A DNA stretch of 64,000 nucleotides. It comes from Escherichia coli (GTDB lineage Bacteria; Pseudomonadota; Gammaproteobacteria; Enterobacterales; Enterobacteriaceae). The notes under the pieces were generated by a model, which worked only from the letters and a program-made list of their open reading frames with translations, was not told where the DNA came from and ran no database searches. Shown one piece after another: positions 5,709 through 22,828 of this stretch; within the stretch, counting starts at the first letter, position 1, and each line of letters begins with the position of its first letter. The translations under genes were made by a program, and so were the position numbers. The stretch lies in NCBI RefSeq assembly GCF_003018235.1, contig NZ_CP027437.1. One strand, written 5' to 3'.

Positions 5709-6350
5709 GTGGCAAAGAATTACTATGACATCACCCTCGCCCTGGCCGGTATTTGTCAGTCGGCACGCCTGGTGCAACAACTCGCTCACCAGGGGCATTG
5801 TGATGCCGATGCGCTACACGTCTCACTCAACAGTATTATTGATATGAACCCCAGCTCGACGCTGGCGGTTTTTGGCGGCAGCGAAGCCAACCTGCGCGTC
5901 GGGCTGGAAACCTTGCTCGGCGTGCTCAATGCCAGCAGTCGCCAGGGCTTAAACGCTGAGTTAACCCGCTACACACTCAGCCTGATGGTGCTTGAGCGCA
6001 AACTCTCCTCAGCGAAAGGTGCGCTCGACACTCTGGGCAACCGGATCAACGGCCTGCAACGCCAGCTCGAACACTTCGATTTACAGTCCGAAACGCTGAT
6101 GAGCGCGATGGCTGCTATCTATGTTGATGTGATTAGCCCGCTTGGCCCGCGCATTCAGGTAACCGGTTCCCCTGCTGTACTGCAAAGCCCACAAGTGCAG
6201 GCGAAAGTTCGCGCAACCCTGCTGGCAGGCATTCGCGCCGCCGTGCTCTGGCACCAGGTTGGCGGCGGACGTCTGCAACTGATGTTTTCTCGTAATCGCC
6301 TGACCACTCAGGCAAAACAAATTCTTGCTCATTTAACCCCGGAGTTGTGA
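5709..6350 (+). CDS. hflD: lysogenization regulator HflD
   Basis: Translation [21 protein letters not shown] from a GTG start at 5709; 213 aa. Confidence 0.9.
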
Positions 6351-7892: not shown

Positions 7893-8564
7893 ATGCGCGT
7901 ACTGGTTGTTGAAGACAATGCGTTGTTACGTCACCACCTTAAAGTTCAGATTCAGGATGCTGGTCATCAGGTCGATGATGCAGAAGATGCCAAAGAAGCC
8001 GATTATTATCTCAATGAACATTTACCGGATATTGCGATTGTCGATCTGGGATTGCCAGACGAGGACGGTCTGTCACTGATTCGCCGCTGGCGTAGCAATG
8101 ATGTTTCACTGCCGATTCTGGTATTAACCGCCCGTGAAAGCTGGCAGGACAAAGTCGAAGTATTAAGTGCCGGTGCTGATGATTACGTGACTAAACCATT
8201 TCATATTGAAGAGGTGATGGCGCGAATGCAGGCATTAATGCGGCGTAATAGCGGTCTGGCTTCACAGGTCATTTCGCTACCCCCGTTTCAGGTTGATCTC
8301 TCCCGCCGTGAATTATCTATTAATGACGAAGTGATCAAACTGACCGCGTTCGAATACACCATCATGGAAACGTTGATACGCAATAATGGCAAAGTGGTCA
8401 GCAAAGATTCGTTAATGCTACAACTCTACCCGGATGCGGAGCTGCGGGAAAGTCATACCATAGATGTACTGATGGGACGTCTGCGCAAAAAAATACAGGC
8501 ACAATATCCGCAAGAAGTGATTACCACCGTTCGCGGCCAGGGCTATCTGTTCGAATTGCGCTGA
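7893..8564 (+). CDS. phoP: response regulator PhoP
   Basis: 223 aa OmpR-family regulator [30 protein letters not shown]. Confidence 0.97.
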
Positions 8565-10024
8565 TGAAAAAATTACTGCGTCTTTTTTTCCCGCTCTCGC
8601 TGCGGGTACGTTTTCTGTTAGCAACGGCAGCAGTAGTATTGGTGCTTTCGCTTGCCTACGGAATGGTTGCGCTGATCGGTTATAGCGTCAGTTTCGATAA
8701 AACCACGTTTCGGCTGTTACGTGGCGAGAGCAATCTGTTCTATACCCTTGCGAAGTGGGAAAACAATAAGTTGCATGTCGAGTTACCCGAAAATATCGAC
8801 AAGCAAAGCCCCACTATGACGCTAATTTATGATGAGAACGGGCAGCTTTTATGGGCGCAACGTGACGTGCCCTGGCTGATGAAGATGATCCAGCCTGACT
8901 GGCTGAAATCGAATGGTTTTCATGAAATTGAAGCGGATGTTAACGATACCAGCCTCTTGCTGAGTGGAGATCATTCGATACAGCAACAGTTGCAGGAAGT
9001 GCGGGAAGATGATGACGACGCGGAGATGACCCACTCGGTGGCGGTAAACGTCTACCCGGCAACATCGCGGATGCCAAAGTTGACCATTGTGGTGGTGGAT
9101 ACCATTCCGGTGGAGCTAAAAAGTTCCTATATGGTCTGGAGCTGGTTTATCTATGTGCTCTCAGCCAATCTGCTGTTAGTGATCCCGCTGCTGTGGGTCG
9201 CCGCCTGGTGGAGTTTACGCCCCATCGAAGCCCTGGCAAAAGAAGTCCGCGAACTGGAAGAACATAACCGCGAATTGCTCAATCCAGCCACAACGCGAGA
9301 ACTGACCAGTCTGGTACGAAACCTGAACCGATTGTTAAAAAGTGAACGCGAACGTTACGACAAATACCGTACGACGCTCACCGACCTGACCCATAGTCTG
9401 AAAACGCCACTGGCGGTGCTGCAAAGTACGCTGCGTTCTCTGCGTAGTGAAAAGATGAGCGTCAGTGATGCTGAACCGGTAATGCTGGAGCAAATCAGCC
9501 GCATTTCACAGCAAATTGGCTACTACCTGCATCGTGCCAGTATGCGCGGCGGGACATTGCTCAGCCGCGAGCTGCATCCGGTCGCCCCACTGCTGGACAA
9601 TCTCACCTCGGCGCTGAACAAAGTGTATCAACGCAAAGGGGTCAATATCTCTCTCGATATTTCGCCAGAGATCAGCTTTGTCGGTGAGCAGAACGATTTT
9701 GTCGAGGTGATGGGCAACGTGCTGGATAATGCCTGTAAATATTGCCTCGAGTTTGTCGAAATATCTGCAAGGCAAACCGACGAGCATCTCTATATTGTGG
9801 TCGAGGATGATGGCCCCGGTATTCCATTAAGCAAGCGAGAGGTCATTTTCGACCGTGGTCAACGGGTTGATACTTTACGCCCTGGGCAAGGTGTAGGGCT
9901 GGCGGTAGCCCGCGAAATCACCGAGCAATATGAGGGTAAAATCGTCGCCGGAGAGAGCATGCTGGGCGGTGCGCGGATGGAGGTGATTTTTGGTCGCCAG
10001 CATTCTGCGCCGAAAGATGAATAA
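8564..10024 (+). CDS. phoQ: sensor histidine kinase PhoQ
   Basis: 486 aa; start overlaps the phoP stop (TGATG); histidine kinase motifs. Confidence 0.97.
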
Positions 10025-10411: not shown

Positions 10412-10925
10412 CTACAAAACGGTAATTTTTTCTCTGCGTGAGAGTGGGCGCGGTGTCCGAATTGTTCGTTGTTCGTGGCTAACCGCTCCCCCCCCTATAC
10501 CGGATTTTTTTCCGGTTAATCTTTAATCAGGCTGGTGGGGGTTACATACCCTTGATCACCGTAATGATGATTCAGGTATGCACCTTTCCCCCCGATGGGG
10601 TAAAAGCATCAACCGTAACGGTAATATCTGCCTTGATGGTCTGCGTGGTCATTATGACCATTCAGCCAATGACCTTAATCAGAATTTTTCGCTAAAAAAT
10701 GATGTTGGCCACGTCGTCCGGAAAGCACAAAATCCCGTCGATTTTTAATTAACGGTTAAACCGCCTTTTTGTCACGGTGTGTCACTGGTTGCCACTCACC
10801 GTCACGATGTCCGCTCGCCTGGCTGTAAATTAAACTACGAAAATTTCGTAGTTGTGAGGGACTACAAGTCCCGCGCAAATTTCCCCCGGTCCCCTCAAAT
10901 TGAGGTTGCCGGAAATATCAACCAG

Positions 10926-11219
10926 TTACCGCCGTAACCGCTCCAGCTTCTTCCAGTGGTACGTAATTTTCTCTTTCTCCCGGTACATCTCAACGCGGCG
11001 ATTGTAGGCCAGCATTTCCAGAACGCGGATCCGTATGTCGCGCATATCTACATCGTTAAGCTGGATACCATCACGGCGCATCACCTCAGCAACCACACGC
11101 GCATAATTTTCAGCGGTCACGCTGTCCGGCTGCGTTGCCTGTTCGTCAGCCTGCTGGCTGATTCCTGCAACGCGGTGGATTAATCGCAGTATTTCGGCTT
11201 CTGTCATTGTGCCCCCCAT
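10926..11219 (-). CDS. hypothetical protein next to cos
   Basis: 97 aa ORF MGGTMTEAEILRLIHRVAGISQQ; no family recognised. Confidence 0.45.
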   Translation of the reverse strand: MGGTMTEAEILRLIHRVAGISQQADEQATQPDSVTAENYARVVAEVMRRDGIQLNDVDMRDIRIRVLEMLAYNRRVEMYREKEKITYHWKKLERLRR

Positions 11220-11243
11220 CGTTCTAATCGTCTGGTGTCGTCG

Positions 11244-11313
11244 GGTCCTTCCTGGAATTATGGCCCGTTACGGGGCGGCGACCTCGCGGTTTTTCACTAT
11301 TTATGAGATTTTT
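11244..11313 (+). other. lambda-type cos site (cos-L), plus orientation
   Basis: cgggtccttcc (cosQ-like) then ttacggggcggcgacctcgcgg; 12-nt cosN gggcggcgacct at 11273-11284, as I recall the lambda cohesive end. Confidence 0.7.
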
Positions 11314-11319
11314 TAGGGG

Positions 11320-11472
11320 GTGGTTGTTGTTTAATTGTTTGTCATATCTATTTGATAACTAAGTAAAAATAGAGAGCAATACAACAACCTGATAGTGTTT
11401 TTTGATGCTACAAATAAAAAAAATGCTAATTGAATCAAATAGTTTTACAAAAATACGTGGTTGTTGTATTGC
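11320..11472 (+). repeat. three GGTTGTTGT repeats, middle one inverted, downstream of cos-L
   Basis: gtggttgttgt 11320-11330, caatacaacaacc 11377-11389, cgtggttgttgtattgc 11456-11472, separated by AT-rich spacers. Confidence 0.5.
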
Positions 11473-11521
11473 GTATTTGATGGCGTAACAGAAAGTGATT
11501 TTGAACTTTGCTGTTCTGTGA

Positions 11522-11731
11522 CTACTGATTGTTCCATGCTGGCGCGGCGAACGCTTCGGCATGACGCCCCCCAGCCAGAAAACCAGCCATTTTATTTCGT
11601 GCTTTGCTCACATCTTCCGGTGAGTAGCCGTAAATCTGTAAACCTTCATTGAATCGATGTTCTGTTTCTTCACTTGAGTACTCGTCGCTCTCCGATGAAA
11701 TCAGCCTGGCAACTTCAGTCTGCGTAGCCAC
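11522..11731 (-). CDS. hypothetical small acidic protein downstream of cos-R
   Basis: 69 aa, GTG start with GAGGTGAGG ribosome-binding site; sits where Nu1 sits relative to lambda cos but is not Nu1-like. Confidence 0.4.
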   Translation of the reverse strand: MATQTEVARLISSESDEYSSEETEHRFNEGLQIYGYSPEDVSKARNKMAGFLAGGRHAEAFAAPAWNNQ

Positions 11732-11761
11732 TCCTCACCTCACAATCACGACAAAACCGGT

Positions 11762-11861
11762 CATGTCCGGTTTACATGTCTATTTTTTGCGCATGTCCGG
11801 TTCATGGAAAGCCTATTTTTATATTTTTCATATAGTTAACTTGCAGAGAAACCGGACATGG
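11762..11861 (-). repeat. three AACCGGACATG repeats, one inverted, downstream of cos-R
   Basis: catgtccggtt at 11762-11772 and 11792-11802, aaccggacatg at 11851-11861 (plus-strand reading). Confidence 0.5.
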
Positions 11862-11932
11862 ATCCCGGAAAATTTTCATAAATAGCGAAAAACCGCGAGG
11901 TCGCCGCCCCGTAACGGGTCCATATGCCGGAA
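11860..11932 (-). other. lambda-type cos site (cos-R), minus orientation
   Basis: Minus strand reads ttacgggtcctttccgg ... cgttacggggcggcgacctcgcggtttttcgctatttatgaaaattttccgg; cosN at 11898-11909. Confidence 0.75.
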
Positions 11933-11941
11933 AGGACCCGT

Positions 11942-11964
11942 AAAAAAGCCGGATTTCTCCGGCC
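11942..11964 (-). terminator. intrinsic terminator after the capsid operon
   Basis: Minus strand gccggagaaatccggc hairpin followed by tttttt. Confidence 0.5.
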
Positions 11965-11969
11965 TTGTC

Positions 11970-12383
11970 TCAGATGGTTTTCAGTATGCGATCGATGTCG
12001 CCGTCATCGCCCGGGTTTCTGCCATCGTATGCCATGCCAGCTGATACGGCTTGCGGGCTGTGCATGTCCATAAAGTTTTCAAAGGCTGCGGTAAGCTCTG
12101 GTGCAACCTTCAGGCGTTCCTGCTCTATGGTCATGCTAAGGATGCTTTTAGCCGTACCAACATCGATACAAGGCACGTTTGCCATTGCACGTAACAGCGG
12201 CTGATAGTCGCCAGATTCATCAAGCGCCATAATCGCATCAGAGCGCGGCTTGTCCTTCTCTTCCAGGCTGTTAAGTTGATATACGGCCTCGTAGGTTGAT
12301 AAACCTCTGTCAGCCATTGCCCGCGCTTCGGCCTTAAATTTACTCGCCAGCGGTAGCGTCATGATGCTTTCATTCGTTGCCAT
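11970..12383 (-). CDS. hypothetical protein, last gene of capsid operon
   Basis: 137 aa acidic ORF directly after the decoration gene; no family recognised. Confidence 0.55.
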   Translation of the reverse strand: MATNESIMTLPLASKFKAEARAMADRGLSTYEAVYQLNSLEEKDKPRSDAIMALDESGDYQPLLRAMANVPCIDVGTAKSILSMTIEQERLKVAPELTAAFENFMDMHSPQAVSAGMAYDGRNPGDDGDIDRILKTI

Positions 12384-12395
12384 CGTTACCCCTGC

Positions 12396-12731
12396 TTATC
12401 GCGCCAGCGGCTGAACGGATACGCCAGAACCCGCAAAGGCGGCGCATTTTTTCGCGTCGGTGTCGACGCTCTCAGGCCAGTTTACAGCGGCGATATTGAA
12501 TATCCCCGCCTTGTAGCACTGTGCTGATTTCTGCTTTGACGTGTCCACGGGGTACGACGTCAGGTAAACAGCCTTGCCCGATTCCTGACCATCCCACGGT
12601 TTAAACTCGCCATTGTCCGCCAGCATCAGCGGGGTAAATTCCTGAATAACGCCAGCATCAGCGGCAAAATGTACCAGCGTCGTGGCGACCTGCTGACTGC
12701 CTGCAAATAACTCAATGTATGGAGTGTCCAT
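12396..12731 (-). CDS. head decoration protein, lambda gpD-like
   Basis: 111 aa; TPLMLADNGEFKPWDG ... KAGIF ... WPE ... AKKCAAFAGSGVSV resembles gpD as I recall it. Confidence 0.7.
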   Translation of the reverse strand: MDTPYIELFAGSQQVATTLVHFAADAGVIQEFTPLMLADNGEFKPWDGQESGKAVYLTSYPVDTSKQKSAQCYKAGIFNIAAVNWPESVDTDAKKCAAFAGSGVSVQPLAR

Positions 12732-20228: not shown

Positions 20229-21479
20229 TTATTTTCTTCTGGCTGCTGGTAGTGCGGTTACGTTTTCTTGTGTTCCCGCCAGTATCCCTAACCGCTCCGT
20301 CCACATATCCAGCGCATTGCGTTTAGCATCCAGATAACGGGAATGATTATAAACTCGCTGCATTCCTGGCATCTGGTGGCCTGTAAGCTGCTCCACGACG
20401 TGAGGATCCACGCCTAAATCGTTCAGCATCGTTGTAAAGGTGCGCCGGATGTCATGTAGTGACCAGTGAGGGTGATTTAGCCTCCTGTGCGCTAATCTGC
20501 CGTACTGCGACACGCTTGTTTCCTGTTTCACTTCCCCCAGCAATAAGCCCGTGTTCCTGTTCTGCTCCACCAGCTGCGTGACGAACGGCAGTATTGCTTC
20601 CGGTATGGGCCGGAATATTGCCACCTTCGTTTTGCTGTGTTCTTTCGGCACGGTCCAGAGCATTTCGGTAAAATCCCACTCTCTGATCTCCGATAACCTC
20701 AGTTCTACCGTCCGGCATCCGAACACAATCAGGAGGCGGATTAACGCGATGTAGTAAGGGGAAAATATTTTTTTGTCCAGTGCCTGCAATAATTCGCCCA
20801 GTTCTTTGGTGCTTAAGACACGCTCGCTTATATCCGGTTTTTTCCCAACGTCCGCCACACTCATATCATCAAGAACGTTGCTGATTGCATAGCGCCGCCT
20901 CCTGCAGAACTTAAGCGCCTGTTTGCACGTCTGTAGCAAGAATCCGGCAGTAACAGGCGTTCGCTTTGCCACCTGGTCAAAACAGGCCAGCCAGTGCCGT
21001 AGCTCGCATTTATCCAGCGGCATAGCACCAATGTGCTGTATTACGTGATTATTAAGGCGCTTTTTCAGGGCGGCATAATCCACGCGATTTTCCTTTGCGT
21101 ACGACTCAAGCCAGTAGGTGAGCGCATCGCCAACCGTTACCGGCTTTAACGCTTCCTGTACGGTGTAATTCATTTCATGACGTGGATTTTTCCCCTCTGC
21201 CAGCCATGCGCGACACTGGGCGGCTTTTTCCCTGGCTGATTTCAGGCTCAGATCAGGATAATTTCCCAGCTTAATGCGTTCCGGTGGTGCCCCCCTTCCC
21301 GTTCCGGCCCTGTAAGTGAAATACCAGGTTAAAAGGCCACTGGTTGAATGCCTGACGCTCAGGTTTCCACCGTCATTAAGAAAGGCTGTTTTTTGGGCGG
21401 GTGTGCCGTTGATTTTCCTCAGCTGTGTATCGCTCAGTTTGTTAAGTGCTCTGCTCATAATTTTGATTCCGGTCATCAC
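20229..21479 (-). CDS. int: tyrosine site-specific integrase, P4-type
   Basis: 416 aa; C-terminal LHDIRRTFTTML ... GHQMPGMQRVYNHSRY catalytic region; start 6 bp from attR. Confidence 0.9.
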   Translation of the reverse strand: MMTGIKIMSRALNKLSDTQLRKINGTPAQKTAFLNDGGNLSVRHSTSGLLTWYFTYRAGTGRGAPPERIKLGNYPDLSLKSAREKAAQCRAWLAEGKNPRHEMNYTVQEALKPVTVGDALTYWLESYAKENRVDYAALKKRLNNHVIQHIGAMPLDKCELRHWLACFDQVAKRTPVTAGFLLQTCKQALKFCRRRRYAISNVLDDMSVADVGKKPDISERVLSTKELGELLQALDKKIFSPYYIALIRLLIVFGCRTVELRLSEIREWDFTEMLWTVPKEHSKTKVAIFRPIPEAILPFVTQLVEQNRNTGLLLGEVKQETSVSQYGRLAHRRLNHPHWSLHDIRRTFTTMLNDLGVDPHVVEQLTGHQMPGMQRVYNHSRYLDAKRNALDMWTERLGILAGTQENVTALPAARRK

Positions 21480-21505: not shown

Positions 21506-21706
21506 ATCGTTGCACAAAGGGCTACAACGTGAAACAAGCTGGAACAAGGAAAATCACAAACCTGTTTATAATCAAAAACATAATGAACAATCTGAAACAT
21601 TATGAAACGGCAAAAAACACTAATTGATAAAATATGTCCATACTTCACGCATTACGTTAAGCATCCGTTATAATCGGTTGCAGATACCAGCCTGTGGATG
21701 CTTAAC

Positions 21707-22828
21707 ATGGAATACCAACTCACTCTTAACTGGCCCGATTTTCTTGAACGTCACTGGCAGAAACGTCCGGTGGTGTTAAAACGCGGCTTTAATAATTTTA
21801 TTGACCCGATCTCTCCAGACGAGTTGGCGGGTCTGGCGATGGAAAGCGAAGTCGACAGTCGACTGGTCAGTCATCAGGATGGCAAATGGCAGGTCAGCCA
21901 CGGTCCATTCGAAAGCTACGATCATCTCGGTGAAACTAACTGGTCATTGTTAGTGCAAGCAGTGAACCACTGGCATGAACCGACCGCCGCGCTAATGCGA
22001 CCGTTCCGTGAACTACCGGACTGGCGTATTGATGATCTGATGATCTCTTTTTCTGTACCGGGCGGCGGCGTCGGCCCGCATCTCGATCAGTACGACGTGT
22101 TTATCATTCAGGGTACCGGTCGTCGTCGCTGGCGAGTGGGCGAAAAGCTACAAATGAAACAGCACTGCCCGCACCCGGATCTGTTACAGGTCGATCCGTT
22201 CGAAGCCATCATCGATGAAGAGCTGGAGCCTGGCGATATTCTTTATATTCCGCCAGGATTCCCGCATGAAGGCTACGCGCTGGAAAATGCGATGAACTAT
22301 TCCGTGGGTTTTCGCGCGCCAAATACGCGGGAACTGATTAGCGGATTTGCCGATTATGTGCTGCAACGTGAACTGGGCGGCAACTACTACAGCGATCCGG
22401 ATGTTCCACCTCGCGCTCATCCTGCGGACGTTCTGCCGCAAGAGATGGATAAACTGCGTGAGATGATGCTCGAATTGATCAACCAGCCGGAACACTTTAA
22501 GCAATGGTTTGGGGAGTTTATATCCCAGTCACGCCATGAACTGGATATCGCGCCGCCAGAGCCGCCTTATCAGCCGGATGAAATCTACGATGCGCTGAAA
22601 CAAGGTGAAGTGCTGGTGCGTCTGGGTGGTCTGCGCGTATTGCGCATTGGCGACGACGTGTATGCCAATGGTGAGAAGATCGATTCCCCACACCGTCCGG
22701 CACTGGATGCGCTCGCCAGCAACATTGCGCTGACCGCGGAGAATTTTGGTGATGCGCTGGAAGATCCGTCATTTCTCGCGATGCTTGCGGCACTAGTCAA
22801 TAGCGGGTATTGGTTCTTCGAAGGGTAA
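21707..22828 (+). CDS. roxA: ribosomal protein-arginine oxygenase (JmjC/cupin)
   Basis: MEYQLTLNWPDFLERHWQKRPVVLKRGF from ATG 21707. Confidence 0.9.
   Translation: MEYQLTLNWPDFLERHWQKRPVVLKRGFNNFIDPISPDELAGLAMESEVDSRLVSHQDGKWQVSHGPFESYDHLGETNWSLLVQAVNHWHEPTAALMRPFRELPDWRIDDLMISFSVPGGGVGPHLDQYDVFIIQGTGRRRWRVGEKLQMKQHCPHPDLLQVDPFEAIIDEELEPGDILYIPPGFPHEGYALENAMNYSVGFRAPNTRELISGFADYVLQRELGGNYYSDPDVPPRAHPADVLPQEMDKLREMMLELINQPEHFKQWFGEFISQSRHELDIAPPEPPYQPDEIYDALKQGEVLVRLGGLRVLRIGDDVYANGEKIDSPHRPALDALASNIALTAENFGDALEDPSFLAMLAALVNSGYWFFEG

Follow-up and report, generated by a model that had tools for sequence, protein, structure and literature searches.

P4 carries the cos site of its helper P2. 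SaPIbov5 and other cos SaPIs carry helper-type cos sites (PMC6092414), and the HE-PICI 11capE has a 258-bp cos region in common with its helper (PMC10111431). E. coli PICIs are known to encode redirecting phage packaging proteins, i.e. RppA, RppB and RppC (Fillol-Salom et al. 2019, PMC6739421; PDB 6HLK and 6HN7), whose winged helix-turn-helix (wHTH; RppC residues 1-64) mimics the DNA-binding domain of TerS and contacts the island cosB (PMC6739421). Substitution L51D of RppA abolished TerS binding in two-hybrid assays, R21A/T22A in the recognition helix abolished island packaging with interference being retained, and F121R abolishes Rpp dimerisation (PMC6739421). Two cos sites have been published for the prototype EcCICFT073, of which cos1 is required and cos2 is dispensable for lambda and phage 80 (PMC6092414; PMC6739421), the proposed Rpp-binding site of the island cos1 being R3-PICI (nt 48-65, AGGTGACACCACCACCAC; PMC9026076). 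The original EcCICFT073 papers reported that no phage cosB was found in the island.

The window, i.e. the whole 64-kb stretch of DNA analysed here, encodes PhoP and PhoQ at 7893-10024 and RoxA at 21698-22828, between which an island of ~11.5 kb is located that reads on the minus strand. This island is a PICI of the EcCICFT073 type, inserted like the prototype between phoQ and roxA; it encodes an integrase, an AlpA-type regulator, a replication module, an SSB and lambda-E-type capsid and decoration proteins, and bears two cos sites. In gene order, its principal features are:

20229-21479, minus strand: integrase, first in the island gene order, followed by regulators and small ORFs
15916-17325, minus strand: RepA-like helicase
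14693-15103, minus strand: SSB, followed by a 68-aa ORF
12743-13798, minus strand: lambda-E-type major capsid protein
12396-12731, minus strand: decoration protein, followed by a 137-aa ORF and then the cos region
11942-11963, minus strand: GC hairpin with T-run, 3' of the 137-aa c1501 homolog and just upstream of cos1, also present in CFT073

The order at the same site in CFT073 is capsid (c1499), decoration (c1500), c1501, cos1, rppA (c1503), cos2 and c1505, and the arm from capsid to cos exhibits 90-98% identity between the window and EcCICFT073. The replication modules differ, EcCICFT073 having a D5-type primase where the window island has the RepA-like helicase. The left half of the window island is mosaic relative to CFT073 (18099-19613 and 15916-17325, both minus strand): parts of the 18099-19613 region did not align with either CFT073 or strain 2017C-4173W12, and the C-terminal 230 aa of a mechanically called 504-aa ORF of this half match phage repressor families. 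The 137-aa c1501 homolog (11970-12383, minus strand), which the NCBI pipeline labels 'phage head-tail connector protein' in some genomes, matched only phrog_1999 (unknown function) and, weakly and at its C-terminal end (residues 45-119), the head maturation protease profiles of phrog_53; a scaffold-like fragment is a better fit than the connector label. The hairpin was read directly from the sequence, the scan giving no flag there.

The lambda 12-nt cohesive-end sequence GGGCGGCGACCT with its flanks is present in exactly two copies in the 64 kb, compared with 0.02 expected, and these copies form the cores of a 77-nt inverted repeat, as a result of which cos1 and cos2 converge on a 69-aa ORF and an A/T-rich spacer. 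Two small ORFs beside these sites had been proposed, in a sequence-only reading of the window, as packaging-specificity or redirection factors; both are present on the minus strand, at 11522-11731 (69 aa) and 10926-11219 (97 aa). The features of cos1, cos2 and the 69-aa ORF are as follows:

11893-11909, minus strand, and 11273-11289, plus strand: the two cohesive-end copies with flanks
11898-11909, minus strand: cosN cohesive end GGGCGGCGACCT of cos1, upstream of an rpp remnant
11273-11284, plus strand: cosN cohesive end of cos2, convergent with cos1
11732-11880, minus strand: phage-derived segment, comprising a PhiR12-type cosB and the nu1 ribosome-binding site, in place of the island-type cosB and rpp codons 1-76
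11704-11712, minus strand: 9-bp microhomology TTGCCAGGC at the right-hand junction, in frame and common to nu1 codons 7-9 and rppA codons 77-79 (FAR)
11522-11731, minus strand: 69-aa chimeric ORF, consisting of nine codons of a phage nu1 (terS) start, RppA ~78-128 and a 12-residue frameshifted tail
11558-11710, minus strand: segment homologous to RppA 78-128 (ORF residues 8-57, 92% aa identity), which belongs to the C-terminal dimerisation region of Rpp
11556-11557, minus strand: 1-nt deletion relative to rppA, CCGTAAGCG to CCGAAGCG

The 69-aa ORF occupies the locus of rppA directly downstream of cos1, as in CFT073 and 2017C-4173W12, and over its residues 8-57 it exhibits 92% identity to RppA 78-128. 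A sequence search of the PDB yielded a single match, RppC (6HLK/6HN7; E=2.9e-7), which is confined to RppC residues 83-126. When RppA was compared by tblastn with the whole 64-kb window, residues 78-128 were recovered in frame (92%) and residues 120-144 in another frame, with nothing for RppA 1-77 and no TerS gene; the 1-nt deletion at 11556/11557 accounts for the change of frame, and the former RppA 120-144 tail is still readable at 11588-11511. With 69 aa, the ORF is half as long as the Rpp proteins (139-153 aa), the gene at the same position specifying 146 aa in the related island of 2017C-4173W12 and 144 aa (RppA) in CFT073. Members of the Rpp family, from E. coli, Klebsiella, Phytobacter and Salmonella, were shown to comprise 139-148 aa (153 aa for RppC) and to share the conserved end MAGF..GW.HAV.VRR, of which AVxVRR was lost through the frameshift in all chimeric alleles, the conserved W125 being additionally replaced by G in the window copy.

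Relative to a complete Rpp, the chimeric product therefore differs in lacking residues 1-77, in its nine-codon terS N-terminus, in its 12 frameshifted C-terminal residues and in the absence of a cognate cosB. The PDB match, tblastn, alignments and AlphaFold2 model concur that the N-terminal wHTH is absent; the sequence-only reading was correct in seeing no winged-helix fold here, as the ORF has not retained that half of its parent. Within the C-terminal alpha4-alpha6 dimerisation region, only the 78-128 stretch is present, and F121 is the sole published functional element of Rpp to survive. NCBIfam, PHROGs and PADLOC searches with the ORF returned no match, and its AlphaFold2 model (pLDDT 65) was all-helical, with no wing and no fold match by Foldseek; since even RppC was missed in that comparison, the Rpp assignment rests on sequence. 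A word-index homology search recovered only five clusters and missed full-length RppA. The exact 69-aa protein is recorded at NCBI as WP_249926948.1, and an exact look-up of the window's own variant on contigs gave no record. The start codon of the ORF is a GTG preceded, at a distance of 5 nt, by a strong Shine-Dalgarno sequence (GAGGTGAGGAG), and a promoter scan identified no convincing promoter for it. It resembles nothing known in a working mode and is an rppA scar fused to a terS start. Other rpp genes have decayed independently, namely P0165 and P0004 (E. coli, 5.14-Mb contig; 53-58 aa, P0165 having 58 aa) and P0181 (88 aa), with frameshifted ends, so the loss of Rpp is not unique to the chimeric allele.

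Nucleotide comparison of the window with the CFT073 and 2017C-4173W12 islands revealed 93% identity up to 11712 and again from 11863, the intervening 150 nt standing for 283 nt elsewhere, which are made up of rpp codons 1-76 and the island-type cosB. Over the stretch that begins at cosN and ends with codon nine, the window matches phage PhiR12_1 (87% over 243 nt, extending into the annotated 'terminase subunit Nu1') and its relatives. Identity to the phage is complete over a run that opens with the Shine-Dalgarno sequence and closes with GTG GCT ACG CAG ACT GAA GTT GCC AGG C, such that PhiR12 Nu1 and the 69-aa ORF both begin with VATQTEVAR. Identity switches from phage to rppA exactly at TTGCCAGGC, and the left crossover is no more than ~45 nt to the right of the nick, in a stretch over which the phage and island cos sites hardly differ. 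PhiR12-like phages (PV340549.1) and related prophages, including those of O157:H7, thus have in common with the window the cosN-proximal sequence, R3-I1-R2-R1, the Shine-Dalgarno sequence, GTG and codons 1-9. The window differs in having only these nine terS codons, with no DNA-binding or TerL-binding domain; nothing in the ORF resembles the remainder of Nu1, be it that of PhiR12 or that of lambda. A 17-nt duplicated stretch of PhiR12 is also absent from the window.

These junctions are consistent with an ancestor that had, downstream of cos1, a cosB specific to the island and a complete rppA (~144 aa). Recombination with a PhiR12/O157-type lambdoid phage would have replaced ~170 bp, with the left crossover in the common cosN-proximal sequence and the right crossover where nu1 codons 7-9 and rppA codons 77-79 have their 9-bp microhomology. 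Such a single event would have placed the phage R3-I1-R2-R1 cosB at cos1 and deleted the Rpp winged-helix domain, leaving an in-frame Nu1(1-9)::RppA(80-128) fusion; the 1-nt deletion near its end may have occurred later or earlier. Two other origins were considered and rejected. A CFT073-type cos2 is not the donor of the chimeric cos1, as that copy ends at R1 and has neither the nu1 ribosome-binding site nor the codons; an assembly artefact is contradicted by the presence of the allele in ~25 independent assemblies, including complete genomes.

The right side of cos1 contains three copies of a putative TerS-binding repeat:

11850-11860, minus strand: R3-like TerS-binding repeat (putative), CATGTCCGGTT, nt 50-60 from the nick, the position of lambda R3
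11792-11802, plus strand: R2-like repeat CATGTCCGGTT, inverted relative to R3, with the A/T-rich spacer between them
11762-11772, plus strand: R1-like repeat CATGTCCGGTT

Including matches with one mismatch, CATGTCCGGTT is present six times in the window, compared with 1.3 expected, and the repeat array that had been noticed at this cos site is real. The cosB of cos1 copies the lambda layout, i.e. R3, an A/T-rich spacer and two copies in the opposite orientation. The island-type R3-PICI motif was not found in the island, the sole weak match in the window being a chance match with three mismatches in the pot genes; cos1 bears a PhiR12-type phage cosB instead of the island-specific cosB, different from that of every helper, that is paired with Rpp.

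That one or both small proteins are full Rpp-like redirectors, retargeting a helper TerS to the island cos sites, fits their genomic position and the partial Rpp homology of the 69-aa ORF. Nevertheless, the DNA-binding, TerS-mimicking domain is absent, as is the island-type cosB, and a cos1 with a complete phage cosB does not need redirection, which makes this reading very improbable. With regard to the 69-aa ORF, the earlier proposal had identified the right kind of system, as the ORF is derived from rpp, but because the winged-helix domain and the island-type cosB are gone, it is no redirector of the type described.

Most likely, the island now presents the helper's own cosB directly. By analogy with the lambda cosB, it would then be recognised by a PhiR12-type TerS, with cos mimicry taking the place of Rpp-mediated redirection of a lambda/80-type TerS. 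PhiR12 TerS and lambda Nu1 are similar only in their C-terminal 92 residues (46%), the DNA-binding end being without detectable similarity, which is indicative of a different packaging specificity. PhiR12 phages are isolated phages, and the PhiR12-type cosB-terS module is present, at >=80% coverage, in 1148 of the 5426 complete E. coli genomes; the PhiR12-type cosB alone was found in 820 genomes, many O157:H7 strains among them. In such an island, a complete Rpp would bring no benefit or would even be self-defeating, since diverting TerS from a phage-type cosB would work against the island bearing that same cosB; for this reason, the 69-aa ORF most likely is no packaging factor but a by-product undergoing decay. 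We infer that a single step in which cosB was exchanged and Rpp inactivated would be functionally coherent.

The distribution of the chimeric allele was examined together with its surroundings, which revealed a discrete unit:

11230-11915, no strand: cos1-to-cos2 cassette, cosQ side to cosQ side, invariant across ten loci except for one SNP (11569)

The sole variable position across the ten loci corresponds to W55G of the 69-aa ORF and is specific to the window, and the flanks of the cassette fall into two haplotypes that are ~90% identical to each other. Only two of the 5426 complete genomes contain the chimeric allele; a larger protein collection contained three 69-aa variants on ~25 contigs or assemblies, the ORF being intact in all three. 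The islands carrying it are located at three sites, i.e. tRNA-Pro/yejM-yejO, a second site in the same genome (CP169399.1) and phoQ/roxA, and have different replication modules. The genome CP169399.1 (strain MFDS1022581) harbours two different islands (L010 and L011, with the gene at 9001-9210 of each) that contain an identical chimeric cos1-rpp' cassette. Being invariant in islands at three chromosomal sites, the cassette spreads between island lineages, with the conserved cos sequences as its exchange points, and this movement argues that the chimeric cos is packaging-competent. The spread is uninformative with respect to the 69-aa ORF, the divergence of which is too low for selection to be measured.

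A functional minimal Rpp, which through its remaining dimerisation helices would either bind the helper TerS and interfere with phage packaging or form heterodimers with the full-length Rpp of rival islands and poison it as a dominant-negative 'anti-Rpp', would account for an ORF that is open in all three variants and in each of the ~25 assemblies, with strong phage translation signals, that retains F121 and that is part of a cassette spreading among islands; moreover, the alpha6 region of RppC contributes to a four-helix bundle with TerS alpha3. This explanation is nonetheless unlikely. RppA L51D, which abolishes TerS binding in the two-hybrid assay, lies in the domain that is missing here; the frameshift removes AVxVRR, and the window allele loses the conserved Trp as well; the AlphaFold2 model of the 69-aa protein is of low confidence and matches no fold; the cos site alone explains the spread of the cassette; and clearly decayed rpp fragments (P0165, P0181) are found elsewhere. 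The preferred reading of the ORF thus remains that of an rpp scar.

The inward flank of cos2 in the window is unlike that of CFT073 cos2 and has R-like repeats of its own:

11322-11330, plus strand; 11381-11389, minus strand; 11459-11472, plus strand: GGTTGTTGT R-like repeats of cos2

Counted from the nick, the first of these occupies nt 50-58, and the first two are spaced ~59 nt apart, as are R3 and R2 of cos1; the repeats resemble the reverse complement of the proposed R3-PICI (CACCACCACCAC). No match to the inward flank (11300-11530) was found in the phage collection, and this flank may represent a third type of cosB. In CFT073 (NC_004431.1; 18160-18310 of its locus L004, minus strand), cos2 was shown to bear a near-exact copy of the PhiR12-type cosB, comprising R3, spacer, R2 and R1 without the nu1 start (compare 11732-11909 of the window), which suggests that the CFT073 cos2 directly serves a second helper family.

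The segment from cos1 to cos2 could be viewed as an exchangeable helper-specificity cassette in which cosB swaps at either cos site would shift or broaden the helper range, CFT073 combining an Rpp-type cos1 with a PhiR12-type cos2, and the window a PhiR12-type cos1 with a third, GGTTGTTGT-type cos2. In this reading, the Nu1::Rpp fusion would be kept as a working mini-protein (for example dominant-negative against rival Rpp proteins, or a residual TerS binder); we regard it as unlikely.

The second small ORF is located on the far side of cos2, where the island is closest to phoQ:

10926-11207, minus strand: 93-aa ORF (97 aa when read from an upstream ATG at 11219), c1505 ortholog, 89% identity

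Every homolog, even one of 42% identity, starts at the second ATG, and the gene is therefore 10926-11207 and encodes 93 aa; its position beyond the cos site and its membership of a real family hold, while the 97-aa start proposed earlier does not. The protein is 89% identical to EcCICFT073 c1505 (C_RS07030, WP_000133413.1; phrog_1561), with homology over its full length, conservation of the position beyond cos2 and no substantial difference from the prototype. The family comprises 935 clusters at 90% identity, and the 97-aa ORF matched phrog_1561 (unknown function; E=3e-54). Pfam, NCBIfam, PADLOC and PDB sequence searches (best E=0.21 in the PDB) returned nothing for the 97-aa ORF, and tblastn against 50,697 phage records gave no match. 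The 93-aa ORF was also compared exhaustively with 1.84 billion representatives, which yielded only 37 matches, nearly all of them close relatives or fragments. Its AlphaFold2 model (pLDDT 72) consists of three helices, with no Foldseek match below E=1, and the predicted three-helix protein bears a basic KKxERLRR tail. The structural and remote-homology comparisons of the two small proteins thus gave the RppC match by sequence for the 69-aa ORF and no fold match for either; the 93-aa family is narrow, with a fold known for none of its members.

Functional data are available for the CFT073 ortholog. Published primers, when mapped on CFT073, showed that pJP2220 (pBAD18-c1505) spans the 93-aa ortholog in the sense orientation and that c1504-07::cat removes L004 18104-19002, i.e. 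cos2 and c1505. Only c1503 reduced lambda plaques, pBAD18-c1505 causing no inhibition of lambda, and the c1504-07::cat island served as the transferable wild type, being transferred by both lambda and phage 80 (PMC6739421). As the clone is inert and the deletion island is transferred, c1505 is neither sufficient for interference nor necessary for lambda/80 transfer; this evidence concerns the protein from CFT073, of 89% identity, and lambda and phage 80 as the only helpers. The idea that the 97-aa protein acts as a packaging or redirection factor is not supported by these data. It would rather be a conserved, small helical product of a terminal island gene, dispensable in the prototype for packaging and lambda interference.

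A role as a packaging-specificity or accessory factor at cos2 for another helper family would agree with the invariable position of the gene directly beyond cos2 in EcCICFT073-type islands, with the basic C-terminal tail and with the 42%-identical homolog of another island type, which follows an array of five AAAAAGTGTCAA copies. We consider it improbable, as CFT073 c1505 does not inhibit lambda and an island from which it was deleted along with cos2 is still transferred efficiently, no similarity to TerS, Rpp, HTH or any other family was found, and homologs are absent from the 50,697 phage records.

Two further observations concern the DNA around this gene. Its last ~40 nt, which include a hairpin (CGGTTACGGCGGTAACTG) across the stop codon, are near-identical at the nucleotide level even in the 42%-identical protein homolog (10923-10945 of the window; 6225-6262 of locus L015), a hint that the 3' end of the gene may coincide in part with a conserved element of DNA or RNA. 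In L015, an island of a different, cos-less type (encoding ProQ-like, PerC and several unknown proteins), the homolog is preceded by the five AAAAAGTGTCAA copies, in both orientations (5760-5990), an array that may be a packaging or replication site.

As a whole, the explanation comprising a cosB swap, an rpp scar, mimicry of the helper cos and a 93-aa gene that is the conserved but dispensable c1505 is, in our judgement, probably correct. The strategy that it implies would be the same as that of P4, SaPIbov5 and 11capE, in which a satellite is packaged by presenting the recognition site of the helper terminase. The window island differs from these in that the helper cosB appears to have been gained secondarily, in a lineage that used Rpp, leaving an rpp scar, and in that it has kept a further cos site, convergent with the first and differing on its cosB side. 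We infer that the cosB swap is the feature that matters at this locus, grouping the island with satellites that bear the cos of their helper and pointing to helper switching, and the two small proteins can be taken off the list of candidate packaging factors.

The locus represents a natural experiment on the Rpp model, as the Rpp DNA-binding domain and the island cosB would have been lost together, and a helper cosB gained, in one event. It lends support to the proposal that the Rpp winged helix is paired with the part of cosB immediately to the right of cosN. Roughly one-fifth of complete E. coli genomes contain PhiR12/O157-type prophages, to which the locus points as an unrecognised pool of helpers, and it suggests that Gram-negative PICIs can toggle between redirecting the terminase and mimicking the helper's site.
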